This document shows, in pieces, positions 1 to 25,892 of a DNA stretch of 25,892 nt. Both the position numbers and the translations under genes were made by a program. Where the stretch lies: IMG/VR virus record IMGVR_UViG_2734482557_000001, one strand, 5' to 3'. This stretch comes from a virus (lineage: Duplodnaviria > Heunggongvirae > Uroviricota > Caudoviricetes). Within the stretch, counting starts at the first letter, position 1; every line of letters starts with the position of its first letter. Under the pieces are notes generated by a model, which had not been told where the DNA came from, searched no databases, and saw nothing but the letters and a program-made list of their open reading frames with translations.

Positions 1-256
1 GTTATCGCTCGCCACGGGAATATCTGCGGCAGCGGGCTTGTAATGGGTTAAGTGATAACAGATGTCTGGAAATATAGGGGCAAATCCAATCGTCGCCGTA
101 TTCCCGTATTAACAGAGACCGTAGCCCGACGGGGAACTCCTTCTGCGCGAGTGTGCGGGAATAATCAAAAACGATGCACACCGGGGTTACCGGGTACACA
201 TATTTCATCATGCCAGCGAGTCCGGTTCTGGCACGGAAGAAACCGGACGTTATGAT

Positions 257-667
257 TTAGTGCGGAAATATTTGTGTAGTGTTCTGTATGTTCTCAGTAA
301 AGAGTAATGAATTATCAAAGGTATAGTAATACCTTTTGTTTTCGTGGATATTTGTAATCCATCTGAAAACCCCTGCTGTAGCAAGATTTTTCCTGTATTC
401 GTAAAATGATAACTCTCCTGATTTGAATCCTTTTAAGGTGGCTTCTATAAGGCATTTATTTTTTGAAAATCTTACATTTACAACCTTACCCTGTCCTTTT
501 ATTAAAACCGTATTATCGTTTTCAAGAACAAGATGAATATTCTCTGTGGCTAAATAGTAAATGTAATGTGAGACATTGTGACGTTTTAGTTCAGAATAAA
601 ACCAGTGATAGTTTAAATTATTTCGCACTTTATCGAATATTTGTTTAAAAATGGCAACCTGAGCCAT
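257..667 (-). CDS. DUF1398-family prophage protein (YdfO/YbcV-like), AT-rich cargo gene
   Basis: ORF track 257..682 minus; start placed at the second ATG ([11 protein letters not shown]...), which has a GAAGG Shine-Dalgarno 7 nt upstream, giving 136 aa. Protein resembles the E. coli cryptic-prophage YdfO/YbcV family from memory. Visibly AT-rich compared with the flanking lambda-like DNA. Family assignment is from recollection, not a search. Confidence 0.55.
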
Positions 668-724
668 TGTAGTACCTTCCATGTGATATGAGGGGGCGTA
701 GTCTGCACGATTATCTAAATTGCT

Positions 725-958
725 TCAATCTGGTCTAACCTGTTTTCTGAGCAATTCAGTAATGTCACTCTTTTCTTTGTTTGCTTCAGGCGAAACTCTT
801 TTTTCTGAGCACAGTCTCCGGCGGCAGGCTTCAATGACCCAGGCTGAGAAATTCCCGGACCCTTTTTGAACAAGAGCGATGTTAATTTGTTCAATCATTT
901 GGTTAGGAAAGCGGATGTTGCGGGTTGTTGTTCTGCGGGTTCTGTTCTTCGTTGACAT
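725..958 (-). CDS. DUF3950-family small protein (YnfO/YlcI-like), possible ribbon-helix-helix fold
   Basis: 77-aa ORF starting MSTKNRTRRTTTRNIRFPNQMIEQINIAL...NFSAWVIEACRRRL, matching my recollection of YnfO/YlcI found next to Nu1 homologues in E. coli cryptic prophages. Divergently oriented to Nu1, directly upstream of cos. Confidence 0.55.
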   Translation of the reverse strand: MSTKNRTRRTTTRNIRFPNQMIEQINIALVQKGSGNFSAWVIEACRRRLCSEKRVSPEANKEKSDITELLRKQVRPD

Positions 959-1150
959 GAGGTTGCCCTGTATTCAGTGTCGCTGATTTGTATTGTCTGA
1001 AGTTGTTTTTACGTTAAGTTGATGCAGATCAATTAATACGATACCTGCGTCATAATTGATTATTTGACGTGGTTTGATGGCGTAGATGCACGTTGTGACA
1101 TGTAGATGATAATTATTATCATTTTGCGGGTCCTTTCCGGCGATCCGACA

Positions 1151-1325
1151 GGTTACGGGGCGGAAGGCGCGCGGGTTTTCGCTATTTATGACAATTTTCC
1201 GGTTTAAGGCGTTTCCGTTCTTCTTCGCCGTAACCTAATGTTTTTATTTAAAACACCCCCTGAAAAGAAAGGAAACGACAGGTGCTGAAAACGGGCTTTT
1301 TGGCCTCTGTCGTTTCCTTTCTCTG
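1151..1325 (+). promoter_or_regulatory. cos: cos site: cosN (variant 12-nt core GGGCGGAAGGCG at 1158..1169) plus cosB (R3 about 1209..1226, AT-rich IHF-type spacer, inverted 16-bp R elements at 1266..1281 and 1307..1322)
   Basis: Flanking sequence GGTTACG / CGCGGGTTTTCGCTATTTATGA and the downstream Nu1-binding R elements match the lambda left end as I recall it. The perfect inverted repeat AGAAAGGAAACGACAG / CTGTCGTTTCCTTTCT is read directly. The 12-nt core differs from lambda GGGCGGCGACCT at 5 positions. Confidence 0.8.
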
Positions 1326-9711: not shown

Positions 9712-10103
9712 AACATACTGAACTCCGTGCAGCCGTACTGGATGCACTGGAGAAGCATGACACCGGGGCGACGCTTTTTGATGGTCGCCCCGCTGTTTTT
9801 GATGAGGAAGATTTTCCGGCAATTGCCGTTTATCTCACCGGCGCTGAATACACGGGCGAAGAGCTGGACAGCGATACCTGGCAGGCGGAGCTGCATATTG
9901 AAGTTTTCCTGCCTGCTCAGGTGCCGGATTCAGAGCTGGATTCGTGGATGGAGTCCCGGATTTATCCTGTGATGAGCGATATCCCGGCACTGTCAGATTT
10001 GATCACCAGTATGGTGGCCAGCGGCTATGACTACCGGCGCGACGATGATGCGGGCCTGTGGAGTTCAGCCGATCTGACTTATGTCATTATCTATGAAATG
10101 TGA
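9708..10103 (+). CDS. U: tail terminator protein gpU
   Basis: 131 aa [54 protein letters not shown]...; start overlaps the Z stop. Confidence 0.95.
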
Positions 10104-14585: not shown

Positions 14586-15172
14586 TGCAGGATATCCGGC
14601 AGGAAACACTGAATGAATGCACCCGTGCGGAGCAGTCGGCCAGCGTGGTGCTCTGGGAAATCGATCTGACAGAGGTCGGTGGAGAACGTTATTTTTTCTG
14701 TAATGAGCAGAACGAAAAAGGTGAGCCGGTCACCTGGCAGGGGCGACAGTATCAGCCGTATCCCATTCAGGGGAGTGGTTTTGAACTGAATGGCAAAGGC
14801 ACCAGTACGCGCCCCACGCTGATGGTTTCTAACCTGTACGGTATGGTCACCGGGATGGCGGAAGATCTACAGAGTCTGGTCGGCGGAACGGTGGTCCGGC
14901 GTAAGGTTTACGCCCGTTTTCTGGATGCGGTGAACTTCGTCAACGGAAACAGTGACGCCGATCCGGAGCAGGAGGTGATCAGCCGCTGGCGCATTGAGCA
15001 GTGCAGCGAACTGAGCGCGGTGAGTGCCTCTTTTGTACTGTCCACGCCGACGGAAACAGATGGCGCTGTTTTTCCGGGACGTATCATGCTGGCCAACACC
15101 TGCACCTGGACCTATCGCGGCGATGAGTGCGGTTATCACGGTCCGGCGGTCGCGGATGAATATGACCAGCCA
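14585..15172 (+). CDS. L: tail tip protein gpL (3' end lost in an N-run gap)
   Basis: MQDIRQETLNECTRAEQSASVVLWEIDLTEVGGERYFFCNEQNEKGEPVTWQGRQYQPYPIQGSGFELNGK... matches lambda L; the ORF runs into the N-run beginning at 15173. Confidence 0.9.
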
Positions 15173-15422
15173 NNNNNNNNNNNNNNNNNNNNNNNNNNNN
15201 NNNNNNNNNNNNNNNNNNNNNNNNNNNNNNNNNNNNNNNNNNNNNNNNNNNNNNNNNNNNNNNNNNNNNNNNNNNNNNNNNNNNNNNNNNNNNNNNNNNN
15301 NNNNNNNNNNNNNNNNNNNNNNNNNNNNNNNNNNNNNNNNNNNNNNNNNNNNNNNNNNNNNNNNNNNNNNNNNNNNNNNNNNNNNNNNNNNNNNNNNNNN
15401 NNNNNNNNNNNNNNNNNNNNNN
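15173..15422. other. assembly gap (250 N) spanning the L 3' end and K 5' end
   Basis: Run of N; flanks are in recognisable L and K frames. Confidence 0.99.
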
Positions 15423-16040
15423 CCGGAGGCGTATTTCCGTATGTCGCCGGAAGACTGGCTGCAGGCAGAGATGCAGGGTGAGATTGTGGCACTGGTCCAC
15501 AGCCACCCCGGTGGTCTGCCCTGGCTGAGTGAGGCCGACCGGCGGCTGCAGGTGCAGAGTGATTTGCCGTGGTGGCTGGTCTGCCGGGGGGCGATTCACA
15601 AGTTCCGCTGTGTGCCACATCTTACCGGGCGGCGCTTTGAGCACGGGGTGACGGACTGTTACACGCTGTTCCGGGATGCTTACCATCTGGCGGGGATTGA
15701 GATGCCGGATTTTCATCGTGAGGATGACTGGTGGCGTCACGGTCAGAATCTCTATCTGGATAATCTGGAGGCCACAGGGCTGTATCAGGTGCCGTTGTCA
15801 GCGGCGCAGCCGGGCGATGTGCTGCTGTGCTGTTTTGGTTCATCGGTGCCGAATCATGCCGCCATTTACTGTGGTGACGGCGAGCTGCTGCACCATATTC
15901 CTGAACAACTGAGCAAACGAGAGAGGTATACCGACAAATGGCAGCGACGCACACACTCCCTCTGGCGTCACCGGGCATGGCACGCATCTGCCTTTACGGG
16001 GATTTGCAACGATTTGGCCGCCGCATCGACCTTCGTGTGA
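15423..16040 (+). CDS. K: tail tip assembly protein gpK (5' end lost in an N-run gap)
   Basis: After the gap the frame reads PEAYFRMSPEDWLQAEMQGEIVALVHSHPGGLPWLSEADRRLQVQSDLPWWLVCRG..., matching lambda K; the start codon is within the Ns. Confidence 0.9.
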   Translation, partial: PEAYFRMSPEDWLQAEMQGEIVALVHSHPGGLPWLSEADRRLQVQSDLPWWLVCRGAIHKFRCVPHLTGRRFEHGVTDCYTLFRDAYHLAGIEMPDFHREDDWWRHGQNLYLDNLEATGLYQVPLSAAQPGDVLLCCFGSSVPNHAAIYCGDGELLHHIPEQLSKRERYTDKWQRRTHSLWRHRAWHASAFTGICNDLAAASTFV

Positions 16041-16609
16041 AAACGGGTGCCGAAGCCATCCGGGCGATGGCCACACAGCTCCCTGCGTTTCGTCAGAAGC
16101 TGAGCGACGGCTGGTATCAGGTGCGTATTGCCGGGCAGGATGTTAGCACGTCCGGATTAACGGCACAGTTACATGAGGCTCTGCCTGACGGCGCTGTGAT
16201 TCATATTGTTCCCAGAGTCGCCGGGGCCAAGTCAGGTGGTGTATTCCAGATTGTCCTGGGAGCAGCCGCCATTGCCGGATCATTCTTTACCGCCGGAGCC
16301 ACCCTTGCAGCATGGGGGGCTGCCATTGGTGCCGGTGGTATGACCGGCATTCTGTTTTCTCTCGGTGCCAGTATGGTGCTCGGCGGTGTGGCTCAGATGC
16401 TGGCACCGAAAGCCAGAACTCCCCGCACACAGACAACGGATAACGGTAAGCAGAACACCTATTTCTCCTCACTGGATAACATGGTTGCCCAGGGCAATGT
16501 TATGCCTGTTCTGTATGGTGAAATGCGCGTGGGGTCACGTGTGGTATCTCAGGAGATCAGCACGGCAGACGAAGGGGACGGTGGTCAGGTTGTGGTGATT
16601 GGTCGCTGA
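15938..16609 (+). CDS. I: tail assembly protein gpI
   Basis: 223 aa MAATHTLPLASPGMARICLYGDLQRFGRRIDLRVKTGAEAIRAMATQLPAFRQKLSDGWYQVRIAG...; overlaps the K 3' end as in lambda. Confidence 0.95.
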   Translation: MAATHTLPLASPGMARICLYGDLQRFGRRIDLRVKTGAEAIRAMATQLPAFRQKLSDGWYQVRIAGQDVSTSGLTAQLHEALPDGAVIHIVPRVAGAKSGGVFQIVLGAAAIAGSFFTAGATLAAWGAAIGAGGMTGILFSLGASMVLGGVAQMLAPKARTPRTQTTDNGKQNTYFSSLDNMVAQGNVMPVLYGEMRVGSRVVSQEISTADEGDGGQVVVIGR

Positions 16610-16669
16610 TGCAAAATGTTTTATGTGAAATCGCCTCCGGGCGGTTTTATCGTTTATGGAGCATGACGA

Positions 16670-19600
16670 ATGGGTAAAGGCAGCAGTAAGGGGCATACCC
16701 CGCGCGAAGCGAAGGACAACCTGAAGTCCACGCAGCTGCTGAGTGTGATCGATGCCATCAGCGAAGGGCCGGTTGAAGGTCCGGTGGATGGATTAAAAAG
16801 CGTGCTGCTGAACAGTACGCCGGTGCTGGACAATGAGGGGAATACCAACATCTCCGGCGTCACGGTGGTGTTCCGGGCAGGTGAGCAGGAGCAGTCACCG
16901 CCGGAGGGGTTTGAATCCTCCGGCTCCGAGACGGTGCTGGGTACGGAAGTGAAATATGACACGCCGATCACCCGGACCATCACGTCGGCAAACATCGACC
17001 GTCTGCGCTTTACCTTCGGTGTACAGGCACTGGTGGAAACCACCTCAAAGGGAGACAGGAATCCGTCGGAAGTCCGCCTGCTGGTTCAGATACAGCGTAA
17101 CGGTGGCTGGGTGACGGAAAAAGACATCACCATTAAGGGCAAAACCACCTCGCAGTATCTGGTCTCGGTGNNNNNNNNNNNNNNNNNNNNNNNNNNNNNN
17201 NNNNNNNNNNNNNNNNNNNNNNNNNNNNNNNNNNNNNNNNNNNNNNNNNNNNNNNNNNNNNNNNNNNNNNNNNNNNNNNNNNNNNNNNNNNNNNNNNNNN
17301 NNNNNNNNNNNNNNNNNNNNNNNNNNNNNNNNNNNNNNNNNNNNNNNNNNNNNNNNNNNNNNNNNNNNNNNNNNNNNNNNNNNNNNNNNNNNNNNNNNNN
17401 NNNNNNNNNNNNNGGGTGACGGAAAAAGACATCACCATTAAGGGCAAAACCACCTCGCAGTATCTGGCCTCGGTGGTGGTGGATAACCTGCCGCCGCGCC
17501 CGTTTAATATCCGGATGCGCAGAATGACGCCGGACAGCACCACAGACCAGCTGCAGAACAAAACGCTCTGGTCGTCATACACCGAAATCATCGATGTGAA
17601 ACAGTGCTACCCGAACACGGCACTGGTCGGCGTACAGGTGGATTCGGAGCAGTTCGGCAGCCAGCAGGTGAGCCGTAATTATCATCTTCGCGGGCGCATT
17701 CTGCAGGTGCCGTCGAACTATAATCCGCAGACGCGGCAATACAGCGGTATCTGGGACGGAACGTTAAAACCGGCATACAGCAACAACATGGCCTGGTGTC
17801 TGTGGGATATGCTGACCCATCCGCGCTATGGCATGGGGAAACGTCTTGGTGCGGCAGATGTGGATAAATGGGCGCTGTATGTCATCGGCCAGTACTGTGA
17901 CCAGNNNNNNNNNNNNNNNNNNNNNNNNNNNNNNNNNNNNNNNNNNNNNNNNNNNNNNNNNNNNNNNNNNNNNNNNNNNNNNNNNNNNNNNNNNNNNNNN
18001 NNNNNNNNNNNNNNNNNNNNNNNNNNNNNNNNNNNNNNNNNNNNNNNNNNNNNNNNNNNNNNNNNNNNNNNNNNNNNNNNNNNNNNNNNNNNNNNNNNNN
18101 NNNNNNNNNNNNNNNNNNNNNNNNNNNNNNNNNNNNNNNNNNNNNNNNNNNNNNNNNNNNNNNNNNNNNNNNNNNNNNNNNNNNNNNNNNNNNNNNNNNN
18201 NNNNNNACTGGATTGACCCGGATAACGGCTGGGAGACGGCGACAGAGCTTGTGGAGGATACGCAGGCCATTGTCCGTTACGGTCGTAACGTCACGAAGAT
18301 GGATGCCTTTGGCTGTACCAGCCGGGGGCAGGCACACCGCGCCGGGCTGTGGCTGATTAAAACGGAACTGCTGGAGACGCAGACCGTGGATTTCAGCGTG
18401 GGTGCTGAAGGGCTTCGTCATGTACCGGGCGATGTCATTGAAATCTGCGATGATGACTATGCCGGTATCCGCACCGGCGGGCGCGTGCTGGCGGTGAACA
18501 GCCAGACCCGGACGCTGACGCTCGACCGTGAAATCACGCTGCCATCCTCCGGCACCACGCTGATAAGCCTGGTTGACGGGCAGGGGAATCCGGTCAGCGT
18601 GGAGGTCCAGTCCGTCACCGACGGCGTGAAGGTAAAAGTGAGCCGTGTTCCTGACGGTGTTGCTGAATACAGCGTGTGGGGGCTGAAGCTGCCGACGCTG
18701 CACCAGCGATTGTTCCGCTGCGTGNNNNNNNNNNNNNNNNNNNNNNNNNNNNNNNNNNNNNNNNNNNNNNNNNNNNNNNNNNNNNNNNNNNNNNNNNNNN
18801 NNNNNNNNNNNNNNNNNNNNNNNNNNNNNNNNNNNNNNNNNNNNNNNNNNNNNNNNNNNNNNNNNNNNNNNNNNNNNNNNNNNNNNNNNNNNNNNNNNNN
18901 NNNNNNNNNNNNNNNNNNNNNNNNNNNNNNNNNNNNNNNNNNNNNNNNNNNNNNNNNNNNNNNNNNNNNNNNNNNNNNNNNNNNNNNNNNNNNNNNNNNN
19001 NNNNNNNNNNNNNNNNNNNNNNNNNNNNNNGCTGACAGTCCGGGCAGTAAATGCGTGGGGGCAGCAGGGCGATCCGGCGTCGGTATCGTTCCGGATTGCC
19101 GCACCGGCAGCGCTGTCGCGGATTGAGCTGACGCCGGGCTATTTTCAGATAACCGCCACGCCGCATCTTGCGGTTTATGATCCGACGGTACAGTTTGAGT
19201 TCTGGTTCTCGGAAAAGCGGATTGCGGATATCAGGCAGGTTGAAACCACAGCACGCTATCTTGGCACGGCGCTGTACTGGATAGCCGCCAGTATCAATAT
19301 CAAACCGGGCCATGATTATTACTTTTATATCCGCAGTGTGAACACCGTTGGCAAATCGGCATTCGTGGAGGCTGTTGGTCAGCCGAGTGATGATGCATCC
19401 GGTTATCTGGATTTTTTCAAAGGCGAGATAGGGAAAACCCATCTGGCTCAGGAGCTGTGGACGCAGATTGATAACGGTCAGCTTGCGCCTGACCTGGCTG
19501 AAATCAGGACGTCCATTACGGATGTCAGCAATGAAATCACGCAGACCGTCAATAAGAAACTGGAAGACCAGAGTGCGGCAATTCAGCAGATACAGAAGGT

Positions 19601-20462
19601 TCAGGTTGATACAAATAATAACCTGAACAGCATGTGGGCTGTGAAGCTGCAGCAGATGCAGGACGGACGCCTTTATATCGCGGGTATTGGTGCCGGTATT
19701 GAGAACACCCCTGACGGCATGCAGAGTCAGGTGCTGCTGGCGGCGGACAGGATTGCGATGGTTAATCCTGCGAATGGCAACACAAAACCGATGTTTGTTG
19801 GTCAGGGCGATCAGATATTCATGAACGACGTGTTCCTGAAACGCCTGACGGCCCCCACCATTACCAGCGGTGGAAATCCATCGGCATTTTCCCTGACTCC
19901 GGACGGAAAGCTGACCGCTAAAAATGCGGATATCAGTGGCAGTGTGAATGCGAACGCCGGGACGCTCAACAATGTCACGGTAAATGAAAACTGTACGATT
20001 AAGGGCATGCTGGAGGCGACTCAGGTCAGAGGTGACTTCGTTAAAGCTGTATCCAAATCATTTCCGAAACAGGCTGGTACGTGGGGTAACACGGAAACAC
20101 CAAACGGGACGGTTACAGTCACCATAAGCGATGATCATAACTTTGACCGCCAGATTATTATTCCGCCCATTATTTTTAACGGTATAGCGTATGACGATCC
20201 GGGGAGCGGAAATAACCCAGGAGGCACGCGATACACGGGTTATGGTTTTGAAGTTCGCAAAAACGGCGTATTAATCGCATCCAGAGAAACTAAAGGTGCC
20301 ATTCCCGGTAGTTACAGTGCAGTTATTGATATGCCTAGTGGTGGTGGTAGCGTCACTCTGGAGTTTAAGATTTTCCAGAAAGGCAATCAGGGGGCAGGCA
20401 ATATCACCGACTGTACGGTGATTGTGACCAAAAAAGCGGCTTCCGGCATCAGTATTCGTTGA
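16670..20462 (+). CDS. J: central tail fibre / host specificity protein gpJ (three internal N-run gaps; C-terminal receptor-binding region diverged from lambda)
   Basis: N-terminus [54 protein letters not shown]... and internal segments match lambda J. The ORF is continuous in recognisable lambda J segments between gaps at 17171..17413, 17905..18206 and 18725..19030. Sequence after ...YLDFFKG departs from my recollection of lambda J. Confidence 0.92.
17171..17413. other. assembly gap (243 N) in J, flanked by a 62-nt direct duplication
   Basis: Run of N; 17109..17170 and 17414..17475 are identical except for one base. Confidence 0.99.
17905..18206. other. assembly gap (302 N) in J
   Basis: Run of N; the gap length does not preserve the J reading frame, so the size is an estimate. 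Confidence 0.99.
18725..19030. other. assembly gap (306 N) in J
   Basis: Run of N. Confidence 0.99.
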
Positions 20463-20484
20463 AATATTTATAACCCCAATAAAT

Positions 20485-20509
20485 GGCGTCAGGAATGACG
20501 CCTTTTTTA
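20485..20509 (+). terminator. intrinsic terminator downstream of J
   Basis: Hairpin GGCGTCA-GGAA-TGACGCC followed by TTTTTTA, read directly. Confidence 0.7.
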
Positions 20510-20532
20510 TTGCAGAAAAGCGAGAGGTAATT

Positions 20533-21339
20533 ATGCGTAAAGTTTGTGCAGCCATTTTGTCCGCAGCCATTTGCCTGGCCGTATCCGGTGCGCCTGCATG
20601 GGCGTCTGAACATCAGTCCACGCTGAGCGCGGGGTATCTTCATGCCCGGACCAACGTTCCCGGCAGTGATGATCTGAACGGGATTAACGTGAAATACCGT
20701 TATGAGTTTACGGATACGCTGGGGCTGGTGACGTCATTCAGCTATGCAGGAGACAAGAATCGCCAGCTGACCCGTTACAGCGATACCCGCTGGCATGAAG
20801 ATTCCGTTCGTAACCGCTGGTTCAGCGTAATGGCGGGGCCGTCTGTGCGCGTGAATGAATGGTTCAGCGCGTATGCGATGGCGGGTGTGGCTTACAGCCG
20901 TGTGTCGACTTTCTCCGGGGATTATCTCCGCGTAACTGACAACAAGGGGAAAACGCACGACGTGCTGACCGGAAGTGATGACGGTCGCCACAGCAACACG
21001 TCTCTGGCGTGGGGAGCTGGCGTGCAGTTTAACCCGACCGAATCCGTGGCCATTGATATTGCTTATGAAGGCNNNNNNNNNNNNNNNNNNNNNNNNNNNN
21101 NNNNNNNNNNNNNNNNNNNNNNNNNNNNNNNNNNNNNNNNNNNNNNNNNNNNNNNNNNNNNNNNNNNNNNNNNNNNNNNNNNNNNNNNNNNNNNNNNNNN
21201 NNNNNNNNNNNNNNNNNNNNNNNNNNNNNNNNNNNNNNNNNNNNNNNNNNNNNNNNNNNNNNNNNNNNNNNNNNNNNNNNNNNNNNNNNNNNNNNNNNNN
21301 NNNNNNNNNNNNNNNNNNNNNNTCGGTTATAAATTCTGA
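20533..21339 (+). CDS. lom: Lom outer-membrane protein (Ail/Lom/PagC family), interrupted by an N-run gap
   Basis: MRKVCAAILSAAICLAVSGAPAWASEHQSTLSAGYLHARTNVPGSDDLNGINVKYRYEFTDTLGLVTSFSYAGDKNRQ... matches lambda Lom including the signal peptide. After the gap the frame ends GYKF-stop as in Lom. GAGAGG Shine-Dalgarno upstream. Confidence 0.9.
   Translation: MRKVCAAILSAAICLAVSGAPAWASEHQSTLSAGYLHARTNVPGSDDLNGINVKYRYEFTDTLGLVTSFSYAGDKNRQLTRYSDTRWHEDSVRNRWFSVMAGPSVRVNEWFSAYAMAGVAYSRVSTFSGDYLRVTDNKGKTHDVLTGSDDGRHSNTSLAWGAGVQFNPTESVAIDIAYEGXXXXXXXXXXXXXXXXXXXXXXXXXXXXXXXXXXXXXXXXXXXXXXXXXXXXXXXXXXXXXXXXXXXXXXXXXXXXXXXXXXXXGYKF
21073..21322. other. assembly gap (250 N) in lom
   Basis: Run of N; a lambda-like Lom needs only about 45-60 nt here, so the N length is not the true length. 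Confidence 0.99.
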
Positions 21340-21365
21340 TTAGCCAGGTAACACAGTGTTATGAC

Positions 21366-21392
21366 AGCCCGCCGGTTCAGGCGGGCTTTTTT
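21366..21392 (+). terminator. intrinsic terminator downstream of lom
   Basis: Perfect 8-bp stem AGCCCGCC-GGTTCA-GGCGGGCT followed by TTTTTT. Confidence 0.8.
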
Positions 21393-21403
21393 GTGGGGTG
21401 AAT

Positions 21404-24400
21404 ATGGCAGTAAAGATTTCAGGTGTACTGAAAGACGGCACAGGAAAACCGGTACAGAACTGCACAATCCAGCTGAAAGCAAAACGTAACAGCACCACGG
21501 TGGTGGTGAACACGCTGGCCTCAGAAAATCCGGATGAAGCCGGGCGTTACAGCATGGACGTTGAGTACGGTCAGTACAGCGTTATTCTGTTGGTGGAAGG
21601 ATTCCCGCCGTCACATGCCGGGACCATCACCGTGTATGAAGATTCCCGACCCGGTACGCTGAATGATTTTCTCGGTGCCATGACGGAGGATGATGCCCGT
21701 CCGGAGGCACTGCGCCGTTTTGAGCTGATGGTGGAAGAGGTGGCGCGTAACGCGTCCGCGGTGGCACAGAACACGGCAGCCGCGAAGAAATCAGCCAGCG
21801 ATGCCAGCACATCAGCCCGTGAGGCGGCAACCCATGCGACTGATGCTGCAGATTCAGCACGTGCAGCCAGCACGTCAGCCGGACAGGCCGCTTCGTCGGC
21901 TCAGTCAGCGTCTTCCAGCGCAGGAACGGCATCAACAAAGGCCACTGAAGCCTCAAAAAGTGCTGCCGCTGCAGAGTCCTCAAAAAGCGCGGCGGCTACC
22001 AGTGCCGGTGCGGCGAAAACGTTAGAAACGAATGCGGCAGCGTCACAACAATCAGCAGCCACTTCTGCATCCACCGCGACCACGAAAGCGTCAGAAGCTG
22101 CCACCTCAGCCCGGGATGCGTCGGCTTCAAAAGAGGCGGCAAAATCATCAGAAACGAACGCATCATCAAGCGCCAGTAGCGCAGCTTCCTCGGCGACGGC
22201 GGCTGCAAATTCTGCGAAGGCGGCCAAAACGTCCGAGACGAACGCCAGGTCTTCTGAAACGGCAGCGGGACAGAGTGCCTCAGCTGCGGCAGGCTCAAAA
22301 ACNNNNNNNNNNNNNNNNNNNNNNNNNNNNNNNNNNNNNNNNNNNNNNNNNNNNNNNNNNNNNNNNNNNNNNNNNNNNNNNNNNNNNNNNNNNNNNNNNN
22401 NNNNNNNNNNNNNNNNNNNNNNNNNNNNNNNNNNNNNNNNNNNNNNNNNNNNNNNNNNNNNNNNNNNNNNNNNNNNNNNNNNNNNNNNNNNNNNNNNNNN
22501 NNNNNNNNNNNNNNNNNNNNNNNNNNNNNNNNNNNNNNNNNNNNNNNNNNNNGGCGTCATCGGCATCATCGGCGTCTGCTTCAAAAGATGAGGCGACCAG
22601 ACAGGCGTCAGCAGCGAAGGGCAGCGCCACGACGGCATCCACGAAGGCGACAGAGGCTGCTGGTAGTGCGACGGCAGCAGCTCAGAGCAAAAGTACGGCG
22701 GAATCTGCAGCAACGCGCGCTGAGACAGCGGCAAAACGGGCAGAGGATATTGCATCCGCCGTGGCGCTTGAGGATGCGAGCACGACGAAAAAGGGGATAG
22801 TACAGCTCAGTAGTGCGACTAACAGCACTTCCGAGTCACTGGCGGCAACACCAAAAGCCGTTAAGGCCGCGTATGACCTGGCTAACGGGAAATACACCGC
22901 ACAGGATGCAACGACAGCACAGAAAGGGATAATCCAGCTAAGCAGCGCGACCAACAGCACGTCTGAAACGCTGGCGGCAACGCCAAAGGCAGTAAAAGCA
23001 GCCAATGACAATGCTGAGAAACGTCTGCAGAAAGATCAGAACGGTGCGGATATCCCTGGCAAAGACACCTTTACGAAAAATATTGGTGCCTGCCGTGCCT
23101 TCGGTGGGTCAGTAAGCACAACAACAGGAAACTGGACGACTGCACAGTTTATCGAGTGGCTGGATTCTCAGGGAGCATTTAACCATCCATACTGGATGTG
23201 CAAGGGTTCCTGGTCTTATGGCAATAATAAAATCATTACTGATACTGGCTGCGGTAATATTCATCTCGCCGGAGCTGTCATTGAAGTAATGGGGATAAAG
23301 TCAGCGATGACGATCCGCATTACCACTCCGACCACATCCAGCGGTGGCGGAACAACCAACGCCCAGTTTACCTATATTAATCACGGAACAGATTATTCAC
23401 CTGGCTGGCGAAGGGACTATAACTCCAGAAATAAGCCAACGGCATCAGAGATCGGGGCGCTACCGTCAGGTGGAACAGCAGTATCATCAGTTAATCTGGC
23501 TTCAAAAGGTCGGGTAGCCGCGCTGACAGACAATACGCAGGGGGCAGCAGGTCTTGAGTTATACGAGGTGTATAACAACGGATATCCAACAGCGTATGGA
23601 AATATCATTCACCTGAAAGGGATGACAGCCGTTGGCGAAGGTGAGTTACTCATCGGCTGGAGTGGTACAAGCGGTGCTCATGCTCCGGCATTTATTCGTT
23701 CACGACGGGATACGACCGACGCAAACTGGTCGCCGTGGGCGCAGCTTTACACCTCGGCTCATCCTCCTGCAGAGTTTTATCCAGTCGGTGCACCAATCCC
23801 GTGGCCATCAGATACCGTTCCGTCTGGTTATGCCCTGATGCAGGGGCAGACTTTTGACAAATCTGCTTACCCGAAACTTGCAGCCGCTTATCCGTCAGGC
23901 GTGATCCCTGATATGCGTGGCTGGACGATTAAGGGCAAGCCCGCCAGTGGTCGTGCCGTATTGTCTCAGGAACAGGATGGCATTAAATCGCACACCCACA
24001 GCGCCAGCGCATCCAGTACGGATTTGGGGACGAAAACCACATCGTCGTTTGATTACGGCACTAAATCCACGAATAACACCGGGGCGCATACGCACAGTCT
24101 GAGCGGCTCTACAAGTTCAGCTGGGGCCCACCAACATAGTCAGACTGGGCCCAGAACGAATAGCGGGAGTCAACCTACTGGAATGTTTCCGGCAGGGAGT
24201 ACTCAAGTTAGCGGGACTAATCAGGTTGGTATCAGTGGCTCATTAACCAGTGGCACCTCCCAATGGGTAGGTAAATCATCTTCAGAAGGAAACCATACAC
24301 ACTCACTGTCCGGCACAGCAGCATCTGCGGGTGCACACGCGCATACTGTCGGTATTGGTGCTCATACGCACTCTGTTGCGATTGGTTCACATGGACACAC

Positions 24401-24479: not shown

Positions 24480-25060
24480 TGGCATTCAGAATGAGTGAAC
24501 AAGCACGGACCATAAAAATTTATAACCTGCTGGCCGGAACTAATGAATTTATTGGTGAAGGTGACGCATATATTCCGCCTCATACAGGTCTGCCTGCAAA
24601 CAGTACCGATATTGCACCGCCAGATATTCCGGCTGGTTTCGTGGCTGTTTTCAACAGTGATGAGTCATCGTGGCATCTCGTTGAAGATCATCGGGGTAAA
24701 ACGGTTTATGACGTGGCTTCCGGCGACGCGTTATTTATTTCTGAACTCGGCTCATTACCGGAAAATGTCACCTGGTTATCCCCGGAAGGGGAGTTTCAGA
24801 AGTGGAACGGCACAGCCTGGGTGAAGGATACGGAAGCAGAAAAACTGTTCCGGATCCGGGAGGCGGAAGAAACAAAAAACAGCCTGATGCAGGTAGCCAG
24901 TGAGCATATAGCGCCGCTTCAGGATGCTGTGGATCTGGAGATCGCAACGGAGAAAGAAACCTTGTTGCTGGAAGCTTGGAAAAAGTATCGGGTGTTGCTG
25001 AACCGTGTTGATACATCAACTGCACCGGATATTGAATGGCCAGTAGCACCTATAGGGTAA
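24479..25060 (+). CDS. tfa: tail fibre assembly chaperone Tfa
   Basis: 193 aa [74 protein letters not shown]...; the ATG overlaps the stf stop by one nucleotide (TAATG). Confidence 0.95.
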
Positions 25061-25145
25061 ATTCGTAATGATTACCTAAATACGTTATTCTTTTGTTAAA
25101 AAAGTGATTTTGCTATAGGTAGGGAGTATGTTCTTGGATTAAGAA

Positions 25146-25176
25146 TAAAAAATCGCCATGAAAGAGCTTCATGGCG
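25146..25176 (-). terminator. strong intrinsic terminator for leftward (minus-strand) transcription
   Basis: Perfect 9-bp stem CGCCATGAA / TTCATGGCG with a 5-nt loop at 25154..25176; read on the minus strand it is followed by a T-run (plus-strand AAAAAA at 25146..25153). Confidence 0.65.
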
Positions 25177-25809
25177 AGTACATAAACGTACAAAATGTGA
25201 TGAAAGTAGAGTGGCGTAAGCCACTATATTAAGATATGACAATAGCGAAGAAAAGTAAATAACATTTTATGGACGTTTAATTGTTAATTATAAAAACTAG
25301 AGTGCCCGATATTGTTTATCTTGCTTTAAAATAATGTACTCAAACCAAATTTTTGAGCTAAAAGCTCAAATAATATAAATGCAATAATAATGTTTAATAA
25401 GACAATTAGCTTGCTTTGTATTTTCATTTCGGAATACTGTTAAGTAACTTTGATGACCCTAACAATAGATCGGAATTTTCTTAGAGTCAATGGTCACTGT
25501 TTTTGCTTGCAAAGCAAATGTTTTGGTGGTTATAAGTCGTCTTAATATAGTCACGCATGCAACTTGTTCCATGCGGAGATTAAAGATTGGAATATAACGC
25601 GAAGATGGAATTAAATTACATTTGCAATAATTAATTTATTATTACTCAATAATTACCGATATTATTATTGTAAATTAATCATTAGAATGCAAAAAGAAAT
25701 GTAACGGCAAAATAAGAGGACGATAGCTGAGAAAAAAGCGTGCTTTCCCAATCTGGGGCAAATCACGTCTGAATGACACCTGAAAACAGGTGGTAGCCTC
25801 AAGAAGGCT

Positions 25810-25892
25810 GGTGATGCTGCCAACTTACTGATTTAGTGTATGATGGTGTTTTTGAGGTGCTCCAGTGGCTTCTGTTTCTATCAGCTGTCCCT
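25810..25892 (+). mobile_element. IS1 left end (terminal inverted repeat GGTGATGCTGCCAACTTACTGAT...), truncated by the window edge
   Basis: The 83 nt from 25810 to the window end match the IS1 left terminus as I recall it, including the start of insA. Confidence 0.85.
25864..25892 (+). CDS. insA: IS1 InsA, 5' fragment (GTG start; M-A-S-V-S-I-S-C-P...), continues beyond the window
   Basis: GTG GCT TCT GTT TCT ATC AGC TGT CCC at the expected offset from the IS1 inverted repeat. Confidence 0.7.

Follow-up and report, generated by a model that had tools for sequence, protein, structure and literature searches.

The 25,892-nucleotide stretch of DNA that we analysed (the window) begins in a lambda-like prophage, in the DNA that separates the lysis genes from cos, and runs on into a full lambda-like late region. 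Two small minus-strand genes, one ydfO-like and one ynfO-like, sit there to the left of cos and Nu1, and they raise the question of whether they work together. A sequence-only reading had described them as one AT-rich cargo module and had suggested a regulator-effector, toxin-antitoxin-like or superinfection/defence pair. Our analysis points to a different answer, which we consider fairly probable: the lysis-to-packaging junction holds two accessory genes that evolve separately, and they do not form a single functional cassette.

Both open reading frames are present, and the features discussed below are collected in Table 1. Counted from its first ATG, the ydfO-like frame spans 257-682 and would encode 141 aa, but the Shine-Dalgarno sequence GGAAGG precedes the second ATG, which gives the 136-aa product annotated for ydfO in K-12 and in phage PhiR49_1, a 98.6% identical relative. 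The family assignments proposed from the letters alone were borne out by profile searches. YdfO matches Pfam DUF1398 (PF07166; YdfO/YbcV/YcgX) with E=3.3e-43 and 147 bits, against a gathering cut-off of 22 bits, and the match is full-length (profile positions 1-119 of 119). YnfO matches Pfam DUF3950 (PF13132) with E=2e-20 and 72.8 bits, the cut-off of this 30-residue model being 25 bits, and it also matches NCBIfam YlcI_YnfO_N (NF041551) with 35.2 bits against a cut-off of 30. Nu1 lies at 1347-1892 (Pfam Phage_Nu1, E=2e-101), and the position beside cos and Nu1 was thus read correctly. The two genes had also been called divergent from the late operon, which is accurate relative to Nu1 only: the late transcript starts upstream of the lysis genes and, in the circular or prophage form, runs antisense through both ydfO and ynfO. 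The remark that neither gene has an established function agrees with a 2024 review of the E. coli 'y-ome', which still lists ynfO and ydfO as uncharacterised.

Table 1 Features of the region from ydfO to cosN, in coordinates of the window.
Feature	Position (nt)	Strand	Basis and remarks
ydfO-like gene, 136 aa, DUF1398	257-667	-	ORF and Pfam; 31.4% GC; soluble, orphan YdfO fold
ynfO-like gene, 77 aa, DUF3950 (YlcI/YnfO family)	725-958	-	ORF, Pfam, NCBIfam, dN/dS, AF2
Predicted sigma-70 promoter of ydfO, inside ynfO 3' end	710-737	-	consensus scan, 9/12
AT-rich mosaic 3' part of ynfO, tail codons ~51-77	725-808	-	alignments; other sequence in lambda, DLP12 and further alleles
PdhR-box-like palindrome ATCTGGTCTAACCTGTT	728-744		sequence; overlaps ydfO -35 and last ynfO codons
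Probable ribbon-helix-helix core of YnfO, residues ~11-50	809-928	-	AF2 and fold searches
Predicted -10 element GACAAT of class II FNR-type ynfO promoter	992-997	-	sequence, alignment
Consensus FNR box TTGATGCAGATCAA	1019-1032		sequence; identical to FNR-bound K-12 site
AT-rich inverted repeat ATCAATTAATACG / CGTCATAATTGAT, candidate operator	1028-1060		sequence conservation
Rightward promoter-like site GTGACA-16-TATCAT, aimed across cos at Nu1	1095-1122	+	consensus, 10/12
Perfect 7-1-7 Fur box TGATAATTATTATCA, 6 bp left of cosQ	1107-1121		sequence
cosQ GGGTCCT	1128-1134		sequence and alignment
cosN	1158-1169		sequence and alignment; variant form in window

The two-gene module is already known, and it is a standard component of lambdoid prophages and not rare cargo. 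The first 150 nt of ynfO occur at 9861 places in 4184 of 5426 complete E. coli genomes (~77%), and the ydfO allele of the window is found at ≥99% identity in 1063 records. The resemblance to the Qin nohA-ynfO-ydfO arrangement of K-12 (b1548, b4533, b1549), which had been proposed, proved to be exact: gene order, strands, gene lengths (234 and 411 nt) and the 57-nt spacer all match, and the FNR, Fur and PdhR sites are the same. Qin YnfO is 97% identical to the YnfO of the window, whereas Qin YdfO is only 76% identical at the protein level, and with a dS of 0.68 for ydfO (0.014 for ynfO) this implies a recombination break between ynfO and ydfO. The Qin prophage also differs from the window in its cosN, and it is defective.

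Lambda and DLP12 carry both families at the same place of their right end, in the order ybcV (lambda gp78), ybcW (gp79), ylcI, cos and Nu1/nohD. The first 150 nt of ylcI and the block upstream of it are nearly identical to the window, and the ybcV promoter region is homologous to the region upstream of ydfO in the window. The two loci differ in what lies between the genes, which is ~600 bp with the opposite-strand ybcW in lambda and DLP12 and ~60 nt of unique sequence in the window, and YlcI is 64 aa long with a tail different from that of the 77-aa YnfO. The ylcI ORF has been left unannotated in the lambda reference records.

The wider distribution of the two families shows that they are independent of each other. 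DUF3950 was found in 155 phage records and DUF1398 in 43. DUF3950 genes without DUF1398 occur in the iss-ylcI-nohD arrangement of strain ECOD1, as a lone ylcI in strain A1.S1.18, and in Stx phage BP-4795, where 41 bp lie between DUF3950 and a divergently oriented gene for an HNH endonuclease. In the other direction, we inspected 30 loci encoding DUF1398 proteins less than 55% identical to that of the window (the Escherichia chromosomal ycgX locus and loci of Kluyvera, Pseudocitrobacter, Citrobacter and Salmonella diarizonae) and found neither DUF3950 nor Nu1 within 6 kb in any of them. Across 80 diverse viral loci, the divergent gene upstream of DUF3950 was always Nu1, a Terminase_2 small subunit or HNH; the downstream neighbours included Rz, PerC, a TonB_C lipoprotein, Ant and ybcW, mostly on the other strand, and only the 28-residue tail type of YnfO has DUF1398 next downstream. 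Near-identical YnfO proteins (97-100%, one tail type) pair with YdfO alleles whose identity ranges from the 70s% to 100%, and no co-variation of YnfO tail and YdfO allele was seen. Among close relatives, the two genes are adjacent in 78 of 80 viral loci. No terminator-like site was found in the 57-nt spacer, so that read-through into ydfO is possible in the Qin-type allele; the two genes may therefore be transcribed together there, and YnfO may regulate ydfO. Judged from these comparisons, the pairing of ynfO and ydfO appears to be positional and not functional, contrary to the functional pair proposed earlier.

The composition of the region also divides the module, inside ynfO at about codon 50. 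The description as AT-rich applies to ydfO and to the YnfO tail, the last 27 codons of which have 36.9% GC and 25% GC3, but not to ynfO codons 1-50, which have 48.7% GC and 56% GC3 and are close to Nu1 (52.7% and 55.5%, respectively). The deviant composition expected of a moron is thus seen in ydfO and the ynfO tail, at 31-37% GC compared with 53-58% in the flanking phage genes, and not in the first 50 codons of ynfO. The same boundary appears in the alignment of the YnfO family, in which the N-terminal 50 aa are almost invariant and the tail is hypervariable, with at least seven unrelated types in viral contigs. Both genes are under purifying selection, with a dN/dS of 0.06-0.13 for ynfO codons 1-51 (against diverged alleles, dS ~0.8) and of 0.21-0.34 for ydfO.

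The 5' half of ynfO belongs to a conserved block together with cosQ, the Fur box and the FNR box, and a uniform cargo module is not compatible with this. In the alignment, the block from cosN leftward through the start of ynfO is 81-100% identical per segment; the cosQ-cosN segment is 83-86% identical because the window has a variant cosN. The block is kept where DNA identity in cosB is down to 46-48% and the Nu1 proteins are only 37-56% identical. The segment 1019-1060, which holds the FNR box and the inverted repeat, is identical at 41 of 42 positions in the lambda-cos comparator that has diverged furthest, compared with 83% identity in the flanking non-coding DNA and a dS of ~0.85 in ynfO. 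The FNR box lies upstream of ynfO in 91 of 96 loci, and the Fur box is present in 81 of the 96.

Identical sites are bound in K-12. The one that matches the FNR box of the window was bound by purified FNR in an EMSA and lies beneath peaks of FNR ChIP-chip signal at nohA/ydfO and nohB (PMC1802558). The Fur box corresponds to the Fur sites of Qin and DLP12, which at 22.3 and 25.3 bits are among the strongest predicted in E. coli, and Fur caused a shift of the nohA site (PMC2189734). The two studies gave these sites to nohA/nohB, and neither mentions ynfO or ylcI (PMC1802558, PMC2189734). The predicted -10 element of ynfO is conserved in the alignment and reads GATAAT in a diverged allele, and its position puts the FNR box near -41, where class II sites lie, relative to a leftward ynfO promoter: the centre of the box, 1025.5, is ~-40.5 to -41.5 from a predicted ynfO start at ~984-985. 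We therefore infer, from the spacing of these elements, a leftward class II FNR-type promoter of ynfO. On the cos side, the Fur box overlaps the -10 of the rightward promoter-like site, at the position where Chen et al. predicted a Fur-controlled nohA promoter; a cloned nohA/B fragment had low promoter activity (PMC1802558). All promoter calls are consensus matches, of which there are four in the region against 2.6 expected by chance. We also looked for an operator shared by the upstream regions of lambda-cos-type and HNH-type loci, and found common 8-10-mers at chance level only; an Rfam search gave chance matches only, to the cosB hairpin.

A separate promoter of ydfO is suggested by consensus and conservation. 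It would consist of a -35 TAGACC (737-732), a 16-nt spacer and a -10 GATAAT (715-710), with a predicted start at ~703, and GATAAT and (C/T)AGACC are also found upstream of ybcV in lambda and DLP12. Since homology to lambda and DLP12 resumes in the ybcV/ydfO promoter region, the end of YnfO, i.e. its last codons and the stop codon, lies inside that region. The PdhR-like box of the window is one spacer base off the PdhR SELEX site reported at K-12 ynfO/ydfO. A paralogous PdhR site was reported at ybcV/ybcW, and in a pdhR mutant the ybcV mRNA falls 10-fold (PMC7660256).

The AF2 model of YdfO is confident (pLDDT 88) and has the fold of PDB 2HH8, the NMR structure of E. coli YdfO, a protein overproduced for that work; the structure search left it an orphan fold. 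In the model, two helices and three strands occur twice in the same order; only this order of secondary structure repeats, and an internal repeat at the sequence level is not significant. No hydrophobic segment was found in the YdfO sequence, so that the labels 'envelope protein' and 'head protein', the latter given by PHROG, are unsupported. YdfO is soluble and without a catalytic signature, and probably works by binding a host or phage component. The DUF1398 family is small, with 189 clusters at 50% identity, and a species-level genome scan gave genuine matches in Enterobacteriaceae only. CRISPRi showed that lambda gp78 (ybcV) is non-essential (PMC10695390), and K-12 ydfO mRNA rises ~100-fold after ionic-liquid shock (PMC4077768). 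A published statement that overexpression of YdfO raises oxidative-stress resistance was set aside, as the source paper names YfdO, not YdfO.

These properties place ydfO close to the bor/iss-type lambdoid morons of the lysis-to-cos junction, which are likewise minus-strand genes of deviant composition inside the late unit, with a promoter-like site of their own and a presence that varies among relatives. Its presence varies, as the loci of ECOD1 and A1.S1.18 and the Stx phages lack ydfO and keep ylcI, and the non-essential lambda gp78 shows that the gene is dispensable. In contrast to ydfO, bor has a known lipoprotein product and a phenotype, and our scan found no terminator-like site after ydfO.

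YnfO is, as had been noted, a basic protein (pI 10.9), and the suggestion that it contains a ribbon-helix-helix-like segment is plausible. The AF2 model of the core (residues 11-50, pLDDT 74-87) shows an extended basic arm and two helices, 19-32 and 34-53. Judging from this model, a ribbon-helix-helix fold is likely, and residues 1-50 would most likely form a ribbon-helix-helix DNA-binding dimer. The structural matches that would identify the fold are below significance: the top-ranked neighbours include the ParD, MazE and RelB antitoxins, and no comparison of YnfO with ribbon-helix-helix regulators (Arc, Mnt, CopG) or antitoxins gave a significant sequence or structure score. With E up to 10, the Pfam search returned DUF3950 only; a profile search against the PDB gave no match, and hhalign against Arc was not significant. 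Two further leads were discarded. The Pasteurella Pmp7 tblastn match is unreliable, since it falls within an annotated repressor gene but on the other strand, and the ylcI and nohA 'mutations' described in evolution experiments seem to result from confusion of the Qin and DLP12 paralogues in mapping, and say nothing about function.

How do the other explanations fare against this evidence? If the two genes were a regulator-effector operon, with YnfO as the dedicated regulator of ydfO and a common transcript from a promoter near cos, then their shared strand, the short spacer free of a terminator-like site and their adjacency in close relatives and in Qin would follow naturally. We consider such an operon unlikely, though worth keeping in mind, because lambda and DLP12 have the opposite-strand ybcW between the two genes, most DUF3950 genes occur without DUF1398 and diverged DUF1398 genes without DUF3950, and a conserved promoter-like site and PdhR box belong to ydfO itself; moreover, the YnfO tail is partly encoded by the ydfO promoter region and hence looks like the by-product of a replacement event. 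A type II toxin-antitoxin system, in which YnfO would be a ribbon-helix-helix antitoxin with a disordered toxin-binding tail and YdfO the toxin, draws on the antitoxin-like architecture of YnfO, on its best-ranked though sub-significant structure neighbours, and on the order of a small gene upstream of a gene of ~130 aa. This is the explanation to which we give the least credence, and we regard it as hardly tenable. Neither Pfam nor PADLOC assigns YdfO to a toxin family, its fold is an orphan, and the protein was overproduced in E. coli for NMR. Nor is there a conserved partner gene beside ynfO of the kind that antitoxins have, as solitary genes occur both ways; the tail and the YdfO allele do not co-vary, one YnfO allele pairing with YdfO alleles that share no more than 76% identity, and YlcI alleles with tails of 12-15 residues stand alone.

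Lysogenic-conversion cargo, with one or both genes acting in superinfection exclusion or in defence against other phages, would suit the location, as the lysis-to-cos junction is a known moron site that holds bor/iss, PerC, the TonB_C lipoprotein or Ant in relatives, and it would suit ydfO, which is AT-rich, possesses a promoter-like site of its own and is responsive to host regulators in K-12. We find it doubtful. Neither protein has a match in PADLOC-DB 2.0 beyond a chance-level Csx23 (E=0.025) for YdfO, neither has an enzymatic or membrane feature, and the literature searched links neither gene to defence. K-12 carries three DUF1398 paralogues and two DUF3950 genes, and we know of no phage-resistance phenotype reported for any of them. 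A rather different proposal makes YnfO a packaging accessory factor that binds near cos or the terminase genes during lytic growth. In its favour, DUF3950 always lies directly upstream of, and divergent from, the first packaging gene in three unrelated terminase set-ups, the 5' half of ynfO is linked to cosQ and cosN, and capsid-forming PICIs with TerS and TerL have been reported to carry DUF3950 as well (PMC13612085). Against it, ynfO is antisense to late transcription and hence badly placed for late expression, and no upstream sequence is common to the HNH-type and the cos-type loci. Lambda genetics has, to our knowledge, found no essential function at the position of ylcI, and we hold this role to be quite improbable. 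The lambda CRISPRi map takes in the neighbouring genes and not the ylcI ORF itself (PMC10695390).

We thus return to two separately evolving accessory genes, for which we can sketch the following roles. The 5' half of ynfO is part of a conserved backbone block made up of cosN, cosQ, the Fur box, the inverted repeat, the FNR box and the putative ynfO promoter. In the lysogen, ynfO would be transcribed leftward from its putative class II FNR-type promoter, starting at ~984, and Q-dependent late transcription, running antisense through ynfO, would silence it. YnfO would most likely be a repressor or regulator that acts between ynfO and the divergent packaging genes. For its part, ydfO would be an AT-rich moron wired to host regulators by its own promoter, which would lie over the PdhR box inside the end of ynfO, and its product is a soluble protein of orphan, internally duplicated helix-helix-strand-strand-strand fold that is dispensable for lytic growth.

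The role of YnfO could be made more specific, in a form that we offer as a speculative and rather improbable extension. YnfO/YlcI might be a lysogen-made ribbon-helix-helix repressor that is part of the packaging module and not of the cargo, and that, jointly with host Fur, silences a rightward promoter next to cosQ. The FNR-activated promoter would then make YnfO, and the terminase would be off and the prophage cos uncut during dormancy; upon induction, antisense late transcription would turn YnfO off. Such a repressor would explain why ynfO is divergent from three unrelated kinds of terminase genes.

In summary, the locus is one more copy of genes that are present in lambda, K-12 and most E. 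coli genomes, and we advise against annotating or following up ynfO and ydfO as a toxin-antitoxin or defence cassette. Just upstream of a small gene that was unannotated at the time lie the Fur and FNR sites long credited to nohA/nohB, and the idea that YnfO/YlcI, together with Fur and FNR, controls transcription beside cos is worth an experiment. If it is true that YnfO regulates the cos/terminase region, this would be a new layer of control in the best-studied phage.

The cohesive end of the window, GGGCGGAAGGCG, departs from that of lambda, GGGCGGCGACCT, at positions 7-12, and the alignment shows a lambda-type cohesive end in all seven comparators (7/7), including PhiR49_1, which is 98.6% identical. 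Exact copies of the window's variant are present in 78 IMG/VR contigs, and therefore the variant is a genuine cosN allele rather than an error. Beside cos, an FNR site and a Fur site both lie upstream of the ynfO/ylcI gene, and the Fur box, separated from cosQ by 6 bp, overlaps a predicted rightward promoter-like site. The literature attributes these FNR and Fur sites to nohA/nohB (PMC1802558, PMC2189734), and ynfO/ylcI is not named in either of the two mapping studies.

Features in and around the cos-proximal genes and towards the right end of the window
Feature	Position	Strand	Remark
69-aa ORF	2-211	-	same strand as ydfO, downstream of it
ynfO-ydfO junction	665-727		57-nt spacer
FNR site	1019-1032		
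Fur site	1107-1121		
Cohesive end (cosN)	1158-1169		GGGCGGAAGGCG, read from the window
N runs	15001-22600		several runs, 1601 N
Second AT-rich stretch	25060-25892		31-37% GC; right end, after the tail-fibre assembly gene

At the junction of the two genes, ydfO is in frame with ynfO and the spacer contains no stop codon. Public gene calls that take TGA as Trp include a 233-aa YnfO-YdfO fusion protein (P0014), whose cluster comprises 761 sequences. By our own estimate, a spacer of 19 codons would be free of stops by chance in ~40% of cases, so the shared, stop-free frame is probably without meaning. In the literature, overexpression of YdfO has been described as increasing resistance to oxidative stress (PMC4077768, citing Wang et al. 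2010). Since the text of that study never mentions ydfO and names YfdO of prophage CPS-53, the statement is likely a mix-up of the two gene names.

A Pfam search with the 69-aa ORF gave no match; a shorter form of it is annotated in PhiR49_1 as hypothetical. The second AT-rich stretch holds no ORF of ≥60 aa lying wholly within the window. The N runs interrupt the tail and tail-fibre ORFs and lower the sliding-window GC values.

Among the loci compared, one set (L017-L037 and L049-L051) consists of ~3.5 kb genome contigs carrying the ybcV-ylcI region of lambda at lambda-level identity, although the taxa given for them, which include Pseudomonas, Kitasatospora, Flavobacterium and Cohnella, are unrelated. 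These contigs look like lambda control DNA left over in assemblies. Many protein-database matches of ~3.5 kb have a similar appearance. Another set, from Kluyvera and relatives (L054-L073), contains diverged chromosomal DUF1398 genes, beside which a gene of ~74 aa, without a match in a Pfam search, is conserved in divergent orientation; diguanylate-cyclase-like, carbonic-anhydrase-like, DinI and cold-shock-domain genes are also found near these DUF1398 genes.
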